IMG/VR virus record: IMGVR_UViG_2654588006_000005
Location: 1 to 43,929 of that record
Origin: a virus
Lineage: Duplodnaviria; Heunggongvirae; Uroviricota; Caudoviricetes
Length of the DNA stretch: 43,929 nucleotides
Direction: 5' to 3' (one strand)
Shown: positions 9,580-43,929 of the stretch, piece by piece
How positions within the stretch are numbered: position 1 is the first letter of the stretch
Layout of the letters: each line of letters starts with the position of its first letter
Notes under the pieces: model-generated
Databases searched by the model: none
Seen by the model: the letters and a program-made list of their open reading frames with translations, nothing else
Told to the model about the DNA's origin: nothing
Made by a program: the position numbers and the translations under genes

Positions 9580-10278
9580 TTACTGCGAAAGTTTGTTAAT
9601 GGAAAGGAAGCCGCCAAAGTTGCCGACGTTATTGCGAAACTTACAGCCACTCAGGCATTTGCTGCATTTATCCTTCGTGATATCGAACGTTGGCTGGTCA
9701 TATTCATCCGCGACCGCCGGACCGTGATAACCGCACTCATCGCCGCGATAGGTCCAGGTGCAGGTGTTGGCCAGCATGATACGTCCCGGAAAAACAGCGC
9801 CGTCCGTTTCCGTCGGCGTGGACAGTACAAAAGAGGCACTCACCGCGCTCAGTTCGCTGCACTGCTCAATGCGCCAGCGGCTGATCACCTCCTGCTCCGG
9901 ATCGGCGTCACTGTTTCCGTTGACGAAGTTCACCGCATCCAGAAAACGGGCGTAAACCTTACGCCGGACCACCGTTCCGCCGACCAGACTCTGCAGATCT
10001 TCCGCCATCCCGGTGACCATGCCGTGCAGGTTAGAAACCGTCAGTGTCGGACGGGCAGCACTGCCTTTGCCGTTCAGTTCAAATCCCGTCCCCTGAATGG
10101 GATACGCCTGATACTGTCGCCCCTGCCAGGTGACCGGCTCACCTTTATCGTTCTGCTCATTACAGAAAAAATAACGTTCTCCACCGACCTCTGTCAGGTC
10201 GATTTCCCAGAGCACCACGCTGGCCGACTGCTCCGCACGGGTGCATTCATTCAGTGTTTCCTGCCGGATATCCTGCAT
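9580..10278 (-). CDS. L: tail tip protein L (232 aa)
   Basis: 232 aa as lambda L; C-terminal Cys cluster (CSKCLSGCKF); synteny M-L-K-I. Confidence 0.9.
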   Translation of the reverse strand: MQDIRQETLNECTRAEQSASVVLWEIDLTEVGGERYFFCNEQNDKGEPVTWQGRQYQAYPIQGTGFELNGKGSAARPTLTVSNLHGMVTGMAEDLQSLVGGTVVRRKVYARFLDAVNFVNGNSDADPEQEVISRWRIEQCSELSAVSASFVLSTPTETDGAVFPGRIMLANTCTWTYRGDECGYHGPAVADEYDQPTFDITKDKCSKCLSGCKFRNNVGNFGGFLSINKLSQ

Positions 10279-10607
10279 CAGTTCACCACCTGTTCAAACT
10301 CTGCGCTGAACTCAACACGCAGCATACTGACCCGCGACGACCATTTTGCGCAGGTCACCTTTATCTGCCGCCACTCATAAGGCGGCGTCCACAGAAAGGA
10401 TTTCCAGCCACCGTGCTCTTCCAGAAACGACTCCAGTACCGTGGCCTCCTCACGGGGGACAGAAAGCGTCACGCTGTACGTTTTCAGGTTGGCATTCAGC
10501 CCGGCAGGCGCTCGCTGGGAATAGCCATCACCAAAGCGCACCTTTCTTACAGAAGGGGCCGAAGCCACATCCATACCGGGTTTCACTTTCCAGCGGAAGG
10601 TTTTCAT
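10278..10607 (-). CDS. M: tail tip protein M (109 aa)
   Basis: MKTFRWKVKPGMDVASAPSVRKVRFGDGYSQRAPAGLN...; 109 aa as lambda M; overlaps the H stop. Confidence 0.9.
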   Translation of the reverse strand: MKTFRWKVKPGMDVASAPSVRKVRFGDGYSQRAPAGLNANLKTYSVTLSVPREEATVLESFLEEHGGWKSFLWTPPYEWRQIKVTCAKWSSRVSMLRVEFSAEFEQVVN

Positions 10608-13183
10608 CGTCCACCTCCGGAGAACAGGCCACCATCACGCATCTGTGTCTGAATTTCATCACGGGCACCCTTGCGGGCCATGTCATACACCGCCTTCAGA
10701 GCAGCCGGACCTATCTGCCCGTTCGTGCCGTCGTTGTTAATCACCACATGGTTATTCTGCTCAAACGTCCCGGACGCCTGCGACCGGCTGTCAGCCAGAC
10801 TGCCCGGTGTACCGACATAACCACCGGTGGCATAGCCGCGCATCAGCCGGTAGAGATTCCCCACGCCAATCCGGCTGGTTGCCTCCTTCGTGAAGACAAA
10901 TTCACCACGGTGAACAATCCCCGCTGGCTCATATTTGCCGCCGGTTCCTGTGAATCCTCCGGTTGCAAAATGGAATTTCGCCGCAGCGGCCTGAATGGCT
11001 GTACCGCCTGACGCGAATGCGCCGCCACCAACAGCCCCGCCAATGGCGCTGCCGATACTCCCGACAATCCCCACCATTGCCTGCTTAAGCAGAATTTCTG
11101 TCATCATGGACAGCACGGAACGGGTGAAGCTGCGCCAGTTCTGCTCACTGCCGGTCAGCATCGCCGCCATATTCTGTGCAATACCATCAAAGGTCTGCGT
11201 GGCTGCACTTTTTACCTGCGACATACTGTCCGTGGCGCTCTCTTCCCACTCACTCCAGCCGGACTTCAGGCCTGCCATCCAGCTCCCGCGAAGCTGGTCT
11301 TCAGCCGCCCAGGTCTTTTTCTGCTCTGACATGACGTTATTCAGCGCCAGCGGATTATCGCCATACTGTTCCTTCAGGCGCTGTTCCGTGGCTTCCCGTT
11401 CTGCCTGCCGGTCAGTCAGCCCCCGGCTTTTCGCATCAATGGCGTCCCGTTTTGCCCGTAGCTGCTGTGCGAATTTATCCGCCTGCTGCGCCAGCGCGTT
11501 CAGGCGCTCCTGATACGTAACCTTGTAGCCAAGTGCAGCCAGCTGGCGTTTGTACTCCAGCGTCTCATCTTTATGCGCCAGCAGGGATTTCTCCTGTGCA
11601 GACAGCTGGCGACGTTGCGCCGCCTCCTCCAGTACCGCGAACTGACTCTCCGCCTTCCACAAATCCCGGCGCTGCTGGCTGATTTTCTCATTTGCTCCGG
11701 CATGCTTCTCCAGCGTCCGGAGTTCAGCCTGAAGCGTCAGCAGGGCAGCATGAGCACTGTCTTCCTGACGATCGCCCGCAGACACCTTCACGCCGGACTG
11801 TTTCGGCTTTTTCAGCGTCGCTTCATAGTCCTTTTTCGCCGCCGCCATCAGCGTGTTGTAATCTGCCTGCAGGATTTTCCCGTCTTTCAGTGCCTTATTC
11901 AGTTCTTCCTGACGGGCGGTATATTTCTCCAGCGGCGTCTGCAGGCGTTCGTAAGCCTTCTGCGCCTCTTCGGTATATTTCAGCCGTGATGCCTCAGACT
12001 CGACCCAGTCCTTTGCTGCCATCTCTCTGGCCTTTTCAAGATCGGCCTGCAACGTGGCGGCTGAAAGCCCAAGTTGCGCATTCGCTCTGTCCTCCCATGC
12101 TCCCCGGAGATTGGCAAGAAATGCTGAGGTTTTACCGCGCCGGTGGCTCCGGCTCTGATACCACTGCCATTTTTTGTCCGCCTCATCAAAAGCCTTTTCT
12201 GCTTTCTCCAGCATTCCCTGGGCAGTGTCCGGGCGACCAATATCCAGCACCGAATCCCACATGGATTTGAATGCCCGTGCTGTCCTGTCTGCCCAGGTCT
12301 CCAGCGTGCCCATGTTCTCTTTCAGGCGGCGGGTCTGGTCATCAAACCCTTTCGTTGCGGCCTCGTTCGCCGCCTGCAATGCCCCGGCTTCATCTCCGGA
12401 ACGCTGCAACTGAGCAACATACGCAATCTGCTCCGCCGTCACGTTATGGAACTGACGTGCCATCGCTGTCAGTCCCGACGTCGGGTCTGTGGTCAGCTTC
12501 CCGAAGGCTTCAGCGACCTTGTCCACCTCCACGCCGGATGCAGAGGAGAAACGCGCCACACTCTGGCTGATCGCCTCAAACTGCTCACCACCACGCACAC
12601 CGGCATTCACCAGCGCCGTCAGTGACTCGCTGGTCTGGTTAAACGTCAGCCCTGCCGCCTGCCCGGCTCTGGACAGGGCCAGAATACGATCTGCCGTCAG
12701 TCCCGCCTGATTGCCGGAAAGGACCAGCCTTTTGTTGAAATCGGACAGGGTTGAGTTGCCCTGATACCAGGCATACGCCAGCGCACCGGTCGCCACCGCC
12801 AGCGAGGTGGCCCCCACCATCGGCAGGGTGATCGCACCGGCAAGCCCCCTGAACATGGGGATCATCCCGCCGAAGGAGTCCTTAACCTGACCACCCTGTT
12901 GCAGCAGGATCAGCCACGGACTTTGCCCGCCTGCAAGCTGCGTGGCCACGTCGGTGAACTGTGCAGGCAGCATACGCATGGCGGCTTTATACTGCCCGAC
13001 GGAAATCCCCGCTTTCTGTGCAGCCAGCGCCTGTCGGCTCAGCGACTGTTCAACGACTGCCGCTGTTTTTTTCGCATCACTTTCCGTACCGGAAAAATGA
13101 CGCCTGACTCTGGCCATCTGCTCGTCAAATCTGGCCGCATCCAGACTTAAATCAACGACCAGATCGCCTACCGGTTCAGCCAT
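10604..13183 (-). CDS. H: tail tape measure protein H (859 aa)
   Basis: Long Ala/Gln-rich coiled-coil protein in the tape-measure position downstream of G/T; lambda H is 853 aa. Confidence 0.9.
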   Translation of the reverse strand: MAEPVGDLVVDLSLDAARFDEQMARVRRHFSGTESDAKKTAAVVEQSLSRQALAAQKAGISVGQYKAAMRMLPAQFTDVATQLAGGQSPWLILLQQGGQVKDSFGGMIPMFRGLAGAITLPMVGATSLAVATGALAYAWYQGNSTLSDFNKRLVLSGNQAGLTADRILALSRAGQAAGLTFNQTSESLTALVNAGVRGGEQFEAISQSVARFSSASGVEVDKVAEAFGKLTTDPTSGLTAMARQFHNVTAEQIAYVAQLQRSGDEAGALQAANEAATKGFDDQTRRLKENMGTLETWADRTARAFKSMWDSVLDIGRPDTAQGMLEKAEKAFDEADKKWQWYQSRSHRRGKTSAFLANLRGAWEDRANAQLGLSAATLQADLEKAREMAAKDWVESEASRLKYTEEAQKAYERLQTPLEKYTARQEELNKALKDGKILQADYNTLMAAAKKDYEATLKKPKQSGVKVSAGDRQEDSAHAALLTLQAELRTLEKHAGANEKISQQRRDLWKAESQFAVLEEAAQRRQLSAQEKSLLAHKDETLEYKRQLAALGYKVTYQERLNALAQQADKFAQQLRAKRDAIDAKSRGLTDRQAEREATEQRLKEQYGDNPLALNNVMSEQKKTWAAEDQLRGSWMAGLKSGWSEWEESATDSMSQVKSAATQTFDGIAQNMAAMLTGSEQNWRSFTRSVLSMMTEILLKQAMVGIVGSIGSAIGGAVGGGAFASGGTAIQAAAAKFHFATGGFTGTGGKYEPAGIVHRGEFVFTKEATSRIGVGNLYRLMRGYATGGYVGTPGSLADSRSQASGTFEQNNHVVINNDGTNGQIGPAALKAVYDMARKGARDEIQTQMRDGGLFSGGGR

Positions 13184-13610
13184 ACCGGACTCCTCCTGCG
13201 ATCCCTTCTGATACTGTCATCAGCATTACGTCATCCTCCGTCATGTCCGCCACATCCGGGGAAGCGGGGATAACTTCATTTCCGTCCGGGCCAAAGCGGA
13301 CACCTCCGGCAAGCCCTGCCGCTTTCTGCATCAGCACATCATCTTCAGGCTCTTCGTCAGCCTCACGCCGGTTCAGCAAACTGAAATCCAGCGGATGCAT
13401 ATCCGGATCGCTGAAAAACAGGCTGAGCACGGTGTACGTCAGCCCGGAAAAGTGCATATCCAGCAGAACATCATGAAAATAATGGGTACTGTAAAAGCGG
13501 TGCCAGTCGGCATACTCCGTGGATGACATCCCGGCAAGCATGGCACGCCAGTCGGGTCGCCCCATCTCACGCTCCAGTATCACGTCAAAACTCAGCTCAC
13601 CGTCGCACAC
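13176..13610 (-). CDS. T: T-frame segment of tail assembly chaperone gpGT (made in lambda only as a G-T fusion by -1 frameshift)
   Basis: 435-bp open frame identical in length and position to lambda T; the track start is a GTG; the frame stays open upstream through the slippery heptamer. Confidence 0.75.
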   Translation of the reverse strand: MCDGELSFDVILEREMGRPDWRAMLAGMSSTEYADWHRFYSTHYFHDVLLDMHFSGLTYTVLSLFFSDPDMHPLDFSLLNRREADEEPEDDVLMQKAAGLAGGVRFGPDGNEVIPASPDVADMTEDDVMLMTVSEGIAGGVRYG

Positions 13611-13616
13611 TTTCCC
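13610..13616 (-). promoter_or_regulatory. G-T programmed -1 frameshift slippery heptamer G GGA AAG
   Basis: Minus-strand GGGAAAG in the G reading frame, 19 nt geometry to the natural G stop exactly as in lambda. Confidence 0.7.
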
Positions 13617-13627
13617 GCAGAAACAGG

Positions 13628-14014
13628 CTAAGCAGCGGGGGAGTGCTCTGTATGTTCTGGGGTATTATTCACAACAAACTCATACATTCCGGACAGCCGG
13701 TACACCACGTTTTCAGCATGAGAAATTGCCTCTGTGGGCCAGGTGGTAAGCACTTCCTGTTCAATCTGTTTAACGGCTTCATTCATGGACGGCATCTGCG
13801 TCTTCTTCGGATGGTTATGCCACAGGGACATCGCCACCACACAAGCACCGGTTCTGATGACGTCTTCCACAGTAACCTGCCGGTTGCTGTCTGACTCCGC
13901 CTGTTCTGCCTGCCGTTTCATCAGGGCGAGATGCTCAATACGCTGCAGGGCTGACAGTTCAGAAAGCGTGACGGTCACGCCGTTATGTTCAAATGATTCG
14001 GTTTTCAGGAACAT
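13628..14014 (-). CDS. G: tail assembly chaperone G, truncated to 128 aa by an in-frame TAG
   Basis: MFLKTESFEHNGVTVTLSELSALQRIEHL... matches lambda G; the frame continues in register after the TAG (PVSAGKCATVS) to a TGA at 13592-13594, giving 423 bp, the lambda G length. Confidence 0.8.
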   Translation of the reverse strand: MFLKTESFEHNGVTVTLSELSALQRIEHLALMKRQAEQAESDSNRQVTVEDVIRTGACVVAMSLWHNHPKKTQMPSMNEAVKQIEQEVLTTWPTEAISHAENVVYRLSGMYEFVVNNTPEHTEHSPAA

Positions 14015-14029
14015 CTCTGACTCTCCGGA

Positions 14030-14770
14030 TTAACTGGCGGTGACGGTGATTTCTGCAACCGCAGCAAACTCACCATTACCGGATACGACCGGAATGTTGA
14101 CCTTACCTGCAGCAACGCCATTCACGGTGATGGTCATACCACTGACCGACACGGTGGCTTTTGTTTTATCCGCTGACACCGCACGGAAGCTCTTGTCGGT
14201 TGCGCCTTCCGGCTGGAATGCCACGGTCAGCGTGGTGCTCTTCCCTTTCACTACGGAAGCGCTGGCTGGCGTCACGGTCATACCGGTTGCCGCTGTTACC
14301 GTGCTGCGATCTTCTGCCATCGACGGACGTCCCACATTGGTGACTTTCACCGTGCGGGTGATCACTTCCTTCGCCGTCACCGCCTTACCGATACTGCTGA
14401 CCCAGCCACGGAACACATCGACCGTGCCGTTCGGGAAGCGGATTTTATAGGCACGGGTATCGCCTTCATTAAACCACGCCAGCAGCGCCTGCTGCCCCTG
14501 CTCTCCGGGCATCCACGCCAGCGTGAAGCTGGTATCTCCGGCAGATTTCTGCCCCTGCCCGGTCGCAGTCCAGTCTGCATCTTCATCATCGAGATAGCTG
14601 TCGTCATAGGACTCAGCGGTCAGTTCGCCGGGCGTCAGGTCTTTAACTTTTGCCAGACGCGACCAGTCAACGTCTGAAAGCGGATTCGCATAAGGGTCAC
14701 CGCTCCCCTTATAAACCCACAGGGTGGTCCCGGCACCTTTCACCGGCATTGTAGGATTTGGTACAGGCAT
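14030..14770 (-). CDS. V: major tail tube protein V (246 aa)
   Basis: [31 protein letters not shown]... near-identical to lambda V; start taken at the lambda-equivalent Met (track ORF has a 10-codon upstream extension). Confidence 0.9.
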
Positions 14771-25290: not shown

Positions 25291-25584
25291 ATGAAAAAAA
25301 TGTTGTTTTCTGCCGCTCTGGCAATGCTTATTACAGGATGTGCTCAACAGACGTTTACTGTTGGAAACAAACCGACAGCAGTAACACCAAAGGAAACCAT
25401 CACCCATCATTTCTTCGTTTCGGGAATTGGGCAGAAGAAAACTGTCGATGCAGCAAAAATTTGTGGTGGTGCAGAAAATGTGGTTAAAACAGAAACCCAG
25501 CAAACATTCGTAAATGGATTGCTCGGTTTCATCACTTTTGGCATTTATACTCCGCTGGAAGCGCGGGTGTATTGCTCAAAATAA
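25291..25584 (+). CDS. bor: Bor/Iss-family lipoprotein (97 aa)
   Basis: MKKMLFSAALAMLITGCAQQTFTV...ITHHFFVSGIGQKKTVDAAKICGGAENVVKTETQQTFVNG... near-identical to lambda Bor as recalled; same position between Rz and cos on the opposite strand. Confidence 0.85.
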   Translation: MKKMLFSAALAMLITGCAQQTFTVGNKPTAVTPKETITHHFFVSGIGQKKTVDAAKICGGAENVVKTETQQTFVNGLLGFITFGIYTPLEARVYCSK

Positions 25585-42539: not shown

Positions 42540-42910
42540 TGGAGCCATACAGCCTCACACTCGATGAGGCCTGTCAGTTTCTTAAGATATCCAGACCAAC
42601 CGCCACCAACTGGATACGAACAGGCCGCCTACAGGCAACACGTAAAGATCCAACCAAGCCAAAATCTCCTTACCTCACAACACGGCAAGCCTGCATTGCG
42701 GCGCTTCAGTCTCCGCTGCATACTGTCCAGGTGAGCGCGGGTGATGGCATAACAGAGGAAAGAAAATGTCACTCTTCCGCAGAAATGAAATATGGTATGC
42801 CTCGTATTCGCTCCCGGGCGGGAAACGAATTAAGGAATCTCTTGGCACAAAGGACAAGCGGCAAGCTCAGGAGTTGCACGACAAGCGAAAAGCAGAACTC
42901 TGGCGAGTAG
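42539..42910 (+). CDS. xis: excisionase-like protein, P22-type (about 123 aa), overlapping int
   Basis: [38 protein letters not shown]... HTH typical of excisionases; TAATG overlap with the upstream stop; 3' end overlaps the int start by about 145 nt. Confidence 0.55.
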
Positions 42911-43929
42911 AAAAGCTAGGGGATTTACCTGATGTCACTTTTGAAGAGGCCTGCCTAAGATGGCTTGAGGAAAAAGCTGATAAAAAATCTCTCGATTCAG
43001 ATAAAAGCCGGATTGAGTTCTGGCTTGAACATTTTGAGGGTATAAGGCTTAAAGATATCTCGGAGGCAAAGATTTACTCTGCTGTAAGCAGAATGCATAA
43101 CAGAAAGACGAAAGAAATATGGAAACAGAAAGTTCAGGCCGCCATCAGGAAAGGTAAAGAACCGCCTGTTTATGAACCAAAGCCAGTATCAACTCAGACA
43201 AAGGCAAAGCATCTTGCCATGATAAAGGCCATTCTCCGTGCTGCAGAACGCGACTGGAAGTGGCTGGAAAAAGCGCCTGTCATCAAGATACCAGCGGTCA
43301 GAAACAAGCGAGTCAGATGGCTGGAAAAGGAGGAAGCAAAACGCCTTATTGATGAGTGCCCCGAACCACTGAAATCTGTCGTCAAGTTTGCGCTGGCAAC
43401 TGGTCTGAGAAAGTCGAACATCATAAATCTGGAATGGCAACAAATCGACATGCAGCGACGAGTTGCCTGGGTGAATCCAGAAGAGAGCAAATCAAACCGC
43501 GCCATTGGTGTGGCGCTGAACGATACCGCCTGTAAAGTGTTGCGTGATCAAATAGGCAAGCATCACAAATGGGTGTTTGTACATACCAAGGCGGCTAAGC
43601 GAGCAGATGGAACATCAACGCCTGCGGTCAGGAAGATGCGCATCGACAGCAAGACATCATGGCTATCAGCTTGTCGTCGTGCAGGAATTGAAGATTTCCG
43701 TTTCCATGACCTCAGACACACCTGGGCAAGCTGGCTGATCCAGTCAGGCGTCCCATTATCTGTGCTTCAGGAAATGGGCGGATGGGAGTCCATAGAAATG
43801 GTTCGTAGGTATGCTCACCTTGCGCCTAATCATTTGACAGAGCATGCAAGGAAAATAGACGACATTTTTGGTGATAATGTCCCAAATATGTCCCACTGTG
43901 GAATTATGGAGGATATAAAGAAGGCGTAA
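42766..43929 (+). CDS. int: tyrosine integrase, P22-type (387 aa)
   Basis: C-terminal catalytic region ...[47 protein letters not shown]... (R...HxxR...Y); 387 aa as P22 Int; stop codon is the last 3 bases of the window. Confidence 0.9.

Follow-up and report, generated by a model that had tools for sequence, protein, structure and literature searches.

Does an amber codon just upstream of a programmed frameshift site mean that a prophage can no longer build tails, or should the codon itself be doubted? The question is raised by a 43,929-nt stretch of phage DNA, referred to here as the window. It is 100% identical to the chromosome of E. coli strain 789 (NZ_CP010315.1, ~567,373-611,301, reverse orientation), an APEC O78 turkey isolate from Israel (record CP010315), and represents a lambda-like argU prophage integrated at the tRNA-Arg gene adjoining fimZ. 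Since this prophage also carries the serum-survival gene iss (window 25291-25584, plus strand), the state of its tail genes bears on the mobilisation of iss. The tail genes lie on the minus strand in the order V-G-T-H, and two overlapping ORFs occupy the space between the genes for the major tail protein and the tape measure protein. Precomputed Pfam assignments place these ORFs in PF06894 (G) and PF06223 (T), which together with their position between V and H bears out the identification of a lambda-type G/T tail-chaperone pair in an earlier note on this DNA. Head and tail genes other than G and T are all annotated as intact. The features discussed below are:

10604..13183, minus strand: tape measure protein H, downstream neighbour of the G/T pair
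13176..13610, minus strand: T frame (PF06223), whose N-terminus holds five private changes
13573..13658, minus strand: anomalous patch of 15 private substitutions, from comparison with eight relatives
13592..13627, minus strand: G frame after the TAG, PVSAGKCATVS followed by TGA, restoring the 423-nt length of lambda G
13610..13616, minus strand: G GGA AAG, the intact slippery heptamer for the -1 shift from G into T, with the same sequence as in lambda
13628..13630, minus strand: in-frame amber TAG at the position of lambda G Glu129 (GAG), from comparison with lambda and homologues
13628..14014, minus strand: G ORF of the tail assembly chaperone, cut short by the TAG after 128 codons (PF06894, Phage_TAC_2)
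14030..14770, minus strand: major tail protein V, upstream neighbour of G, its protein (WP_044502411.1) identical to that of relatives
42766-43929: integrase

An amber codon ahead of the G-T slippery site

The minus-strand G ORF (14014..13628) ends after 128 codons at a TAG (13630-13628). Beyond it the same frame reads CCT GTT TCT GCG GGA AAG TGT GCG ACG GTG AGC TGA, with the TGA at 13594-13592, and the four codons CCT GTT TCT GCG separate the TAG from the GGA of the slippery site. From the G ATG to this TGA the frame measures 423 nt, equal to lambda G (9711-10133). In the -1 (T) frame, no stop occurs from a point 13 codons before the slippery Gly-Lys pair (...YPRTYRALPRCLACFCGKVCDGELSF...) onward into the T ORF, and this frame spans the TAG. 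These readings agree with the earlier note, which had described a G ORF stopping after 128 codons, its continuation in register through G GGA AAG to the length of lambda G, and a T frame open across the site. The heptamer in the G frame has the form X XXY YYZ and the T frame stays open past it, and the G frame is interrupted by TAG between its start and the slippery site. On sequence grounds, the locus is a homologous copy of the lambda-type G/GT cassette that is predicted to be disabled as written.

According to PMC3296357, which cites Levin et al. 1993, lambda makes gpGT through a -1 slip on GGGAAAG in ~4% of translations, and normal replication of lambda needs both gpG and gpGT. With a TAG four codons before the slippery site, the chain would be released early, leaving gpG 12 residues short at its C-terminus and gpGT virtually absent. 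The earlier argument that ribosomes stop before reaching G GGA AAG, and that no gpGT is possible, is thus logically sound for the sequence as written. The public annotation gives no sign of this. RefSeq/PGAP treats the 128-aa G (WP_044502133.1) as a normal CDS, not flagged as a pseudogene, and gives T an independent 144-aa CDS (WP_071925348.1) that starts with a GTG at 13610, inside the slippery site; a join for the gpGT frameshift product is absent. The 128-aa G is 91% identical to 140-aa G proteins.

Next, we compared codon 129 among relatives. The length of 140 aa that the earlier note gives for lambda G proved correct, and the alignment that it had proposed gives GAG (Glu129) as the wild-type codon at the TAG position. 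GAG is present in all eight comparison loci, namely lambda, phage Chlobot and six E. coli prophages. Among the best 120 G homologue clusters from a collection of 5.8 billion proteins, 112 reach codon 129 (the other eight end before it or diverge); 110 of these have Glu, in the context ...PAEPVSAGK..., and two have Val. A stop at this codon was found in none of the 112 clusters and none of the eight loci. The change in the window is therefore from GAG (Glu129) to TAG.

A transversion-only patch found in one assembly

The amber codon does not stand alone. Comparison of the 2-kb V-G-T-H segment with the two closest relatives of the window gave 17 differences, 15 of which fall within 86 bp (13573-13658), leaving two in the remaining 1.9 kb. 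Two isolated private differences lie outside the patch, 13080 C>G in H and 13281 G>A in T. Within the patch, where 17% of positions are substituted, all 15 changes are transversions, with no transitions and no indels, and every one is private with respect to the eight loci, lambda included. On the coding strand (ancestral>derived), an upstream group consists of T>A, G>T, G>C, G>T, GGG>CCC, C>G, A>T and G>T, the last of which creates the TAG; it is followed by a single T>G and then by a downstream group of C>A, C>G, A>T and C>A. The ancestral bases at the mutated sites are seven G, four C, two A and two T, and they are unevenly placed: G accounts for 7 of the 10 mutated bases upstream and C for 3 of the 5 downstream. 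The TAG is thus part of a multi-substitution patch and is no isolated point mutation.

The patch alters both overlapping frames. In G it causes Q>H, D>H, A>S, G>P, P>A and E>stop, with S>A past the slippery site. In T it converts FDGELSFALKLAREMG, found in 20 of 22 cluster representatives, to CDGELSFDVILEREMG in the window, and the five residues affected are identical in 20 of the 22 T homologues. Most of the changes are therefore non-synonymous, at residues otherwise conserved, in both frames. The 23 nt around the heptamer were left untouched and are identical to lambda. In relatives, the minimum-free-energy mRNA fold places the first bases of the heptamer in a 9-bp hairpin (CCTGCAGAG / TTCTGCGGG, window 13614-13636, minus strand). 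The changes in the window break three pairs of this predicted ancestral hairpin, and the predicted free energy is -40.1 kcal/mol, vs -44.7 kcal/mol for the ancestral sequence. We know of no described role for this hairpin, which adjoins the heptamer. Compensatory changes that keep an RNA structure were considered and rejected, as three hairpin pairs are broken and there is no consistent covariation.

We then asked how widely the derived sequence occurs. A 101-mer carrying it is present in 1 of 5426 complete E. coli genomes, while the ancestral 101-mer is found at no less than 90% identity in 3494 of the same 5426. The exact 128-aa G and 144-aa T proteins occur in one assembly only, CP010315, among 153 billion gene positions. 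Pattern scans for the derived patch gave no match in IMG/VR or in the JGI metagenomes, and among GTDB representatives only three chance matches, in high-GC actinobacteria. The altered C-terminus of G, PEHTEHSPAA, is in none of the best 120 protein clusters listed.

The patch also departs from the private substitutions that strain 789 carries elsewhere. Compared with two independent relatives, 47.4 kb of flanking core DNA contains four transitions and four transversions plus one 1-bp deletion. A second core region of ~48 kb outside repeats contains eight transitions and two transversions. Over 20 kb of the prophage there are 51 transitions and 31 transversions, the patch included. Private changes outside the patch are scattered and mostly transitions, and at a transition probability of ~0.67 the chance of seeing none among 15 is ~6e-8. 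A second patch of the same kind was found neither in the ~96 kb of core DNA nor in the rest of the prophage. Two further observations concern the same genes or genome. A private 1-bp deletion at NZ_CP010315.1 525542 makes fetA a frameshifted pseudogene in strain 789, while the gene is intact in two close relatives; this could be either a real loss or another single-base error of the record. In another E. coli genome, an in-frame deletion joins T straight to the N-terminal ~50 residues of G, giving a 182-aa product that is 100% identical to the T of the window from REMGRPDW onward, which is a different route to damage of the G/T cassette.

Altogether, with its 17% density, its lack of transitions and indels, its non-synonymous changes at conserved residues and no donor found (see below), the patch does not look like the outcome of evolution or like a designed recoding signal.

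Explanations for the patch and its amber codon

The strain 789 genome was sequenced from 1.5-4 kb plasmid shotgun clones with ~55,000 ABI 3730xl reads, assembled with PHRED/PHRAP, edited in Gap4 and closed by PCR and primer walking (PMC4313913). The record CP010315 also serves as the reference sequence in PMC9426608. By our own arithmetic from the read number, the coverage is ~7-8x, which leaves room for stretches that rest on a single clone or on poor reads. Given this Sanger shotgun method, together with the singleton status, spectrum and clustering of the changes, we suspect that the patch, including the TAG, is a local clone or sequence artefact, and consider this moderately likely. The error would have entered the shotgun consensus via a damaged or mutated single clone or via a poorly supported stretch. 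The real prophage would then have GAG and would produce gpG as well as gpGT in the usual way, with a -1 slip on G GGA AAG. A sequencing or assembly error, which the earlier note had mentioned only as something that would overturn its reading, has in this way become the leading explanation, on the strength of a private 86-bp patch of 15 transversions in a Sanger-era record.

The fit is imperfect, however. Neither the core flanks nor the rest of the prophage holds a second patch, and this suggests that the assembly is generally clean; we rejected a generally error-ridden assembly, as the private differences in the two ~48-kb core stretches are all scattered and rich in transitions. It would also be unusual for a low-quality Sanger stretch to contain 15 miscalls and no indel. 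The spectrum is equally awkward, since uniformly random miscalls would include no transition among 15 with p = 0.002, and with the dye order of BigDye chemistry, cross-talk between ABI dyes would yield G<->A and T<->C errors. We know of no technical process that avoids transitions.

Alternatively, the patch may be real, a reading that is less probable than an error in the record. A single local multi-base event would have introduced the 15 transversions and turned GAG into TAG, blocking gpGT and leaving the prophage tail-defective; error-prone repair synthesis across a heavily damaged stretch could be its source. The prophage would excise, replicate, make heads and lyse its host but would lack normal tails, as a recently inactivated cryptic prophage. 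The TAG is, after all, present in the deposited sequence, the surrounding assembly is clean, and the lack of indels and the G-rich then C-rich order of the mutated bases resemble chemistry more than base-caller noise. A block to tail formation would also be expected, since both gpG and gpGT are required in lambda according to PMC3296357, and no way around the stop was found: strain 789 has neither supE nor supF, the window has no tRNA gene, and no heptamer precedes the TAG in the region where the T frame is open. However, the other structural genes are all intact, so a real lesion would need to have arisen very recently and at a single spot, and the allele was seen in no other isolate or metagenome searched. 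Nor do we know of a process in living bacteria that would substitute 17% of the bases over 86 bp without transitions. That the patch records one localized hypermutation event, a natural case of an extremely dense transversion-only cluster in E. coli that disabled gpGT and left the slippery site untouched, seems to us somewhat unlikely. Of the tail-defective prophage proposed in the earlier note, the functional argument from the TAG stands; as an account of this strain, it is now the main rival and ranks behind an artefact.

It is far less probable that the TAG is real and is decoded, by a suppressor tRNA, by leaky termination at UAG-C or by a frameshift further upstream, so that full-length gpG and gpGT are made from a recoding variant. 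In favour of decoding, the open stretch of the T frame begins 13 codons before the slippery Gly-Lys pair and so takes in the TAG, whose next base in the window is C; UAG-C is among the weaker contexts for termination in E. coli. Strain 789 also has a private R247W change in PrmC (NZ_CP010315.1 1350866-1351699), the release-factor methyltransferase. However, the stop is conserved in no relative, and the gene prfA for RF1 is a common allele in this strain. ARAGORN found no tRNA gene in the window. In the host, where clusters were located by synteny, the glnV/glnX anticodons are CTG and the tyrT/tyrV anticodons are GTA, as in the wild type, which argues against both supE and supF; this check covered glnV/glnX and tyrT/tyrV. 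These results speak against the suppressor background that the earlier note had offered as an alternative. When the three frames were inspected, the part of the G frame that lies ahead of the TAG and overlaps the open T frame contained no X XXY YYZ heptamer. As a rough estimate, background readthrough multiplied by ~4% frameshifting would place gpGT ~100-fold or more below its normal level. With a stop that is not conserved and no cognate suppressor tRNA found in the window or at glnV/glnX and tyrT/tyrV, programmed readthrough or suppression is very unlikely, and neither of the two main readings implies a new recoding mechanism.

We attach an equally small probability to a naturally diverged allele that another lambdoid phage or locus donated to this site through gene conversion or recombination. 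Lambdoid prophages are mosaic, and blocks of private differences do occur elsewhere in the window. However, no donor was found: blastn (word size 11) with the derived 47-mer against the 5426 E. coli genomes, the chromosome and plasmids of strain 789 among them, returned only the sequence itself, and the window contains no second copy of the patch within three mismatches. IMG/VR and the JGI metagenomes yielded no donor either, the three actinobacterial matches in GTDB are attributable to chance, and the C-terminus PEHTEHSPAA is shared by no listed protein cluster. In addition, 0 transitions among 15 changes, with non-synonymous changes at conserved residues in both frames, is the opposite of what selection leaves behind. 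On the basis of this spectrum, the coding changes and the missing donor, we rejected natural divergence and recombination.

Local templates fared no better. A diversity-generating retroelement was rejected, since the mutated sites are seven G, four C, two A and two T and so are not adenine-specific; no template repeat was found, and no reverse transcriptase gene is annotated in the prophage. Template switching was not supported by a scan of all inverted axes and direct offsets within ~1.1 kb. Among inverted axes, the best accounted for 11 of the 15 derived bases; among direct offsets, the best (+379 nt, same strand, downstream) accounted for 12 of 15, with the unchanged positions at chance level only and a simulation p of 0.05, borderline for chance. 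This match is probably a coincidence, although superimposed templates in a primer-walk read could give such a pattern.

What follows depends on the reading. Should the patch be an artefact, the unique proteins WP_044502133.1 and WP_071925348.1 would be noise in the databases, and the prophage with iss may be fully functional. With a real TAG, a prophage that carries a virulence gene would be tail-defective, iss could not be transferred in infectious particles unless a helper were present, and the patch would represent an unusual mutational signature. Most probably, the TAG feature itself is not biological, and the sole unusual residue of the case is the unexplained transversion-only patch.

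Relation to known systems

The closest known system is the G/G-T cassette of lambda (Levin, Hendrix and Casjens 1993; Xu et al. 2004), which occupies the same place between V and H. Over its 839-bp G-T stretch, the window shares 95.8% identity with lambda 9711-10549 and 98.0% with phage Chlobot. Lambda and the window share a 423-nt G, the heptamer with its surrounding 23 nt, and the Pfam families of both proteins. They differ at codon 129, which is TAG in the window and GAG in lambda, and in 14 more private transversions that flank this site; as written, the G frame of the window stops before the slippery site.

Classical amber mutants in phage morphogenetic genes and cryptic prophages inactivated by point mutation are similar in that a single GAG>TAG change in an essential tail gene would lead to a suppressor-dependent phenotype. 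Unlike laboratory mutant stocks, the window comes from a natural isolate with neither supE nor supF, and its TAG lies inside a multi-substitution patch. Local consensus errors of the Sanger era provide the third comparison. The patch differs from them in its lack of indels and transitions and in the cleanness of the rest of the examined assembly, but resembles them in its singleton allele, its dense clustering, its unnatural spectrum, its non-synonymous changes at invariant residues and the documented method by which this genome was assembled.
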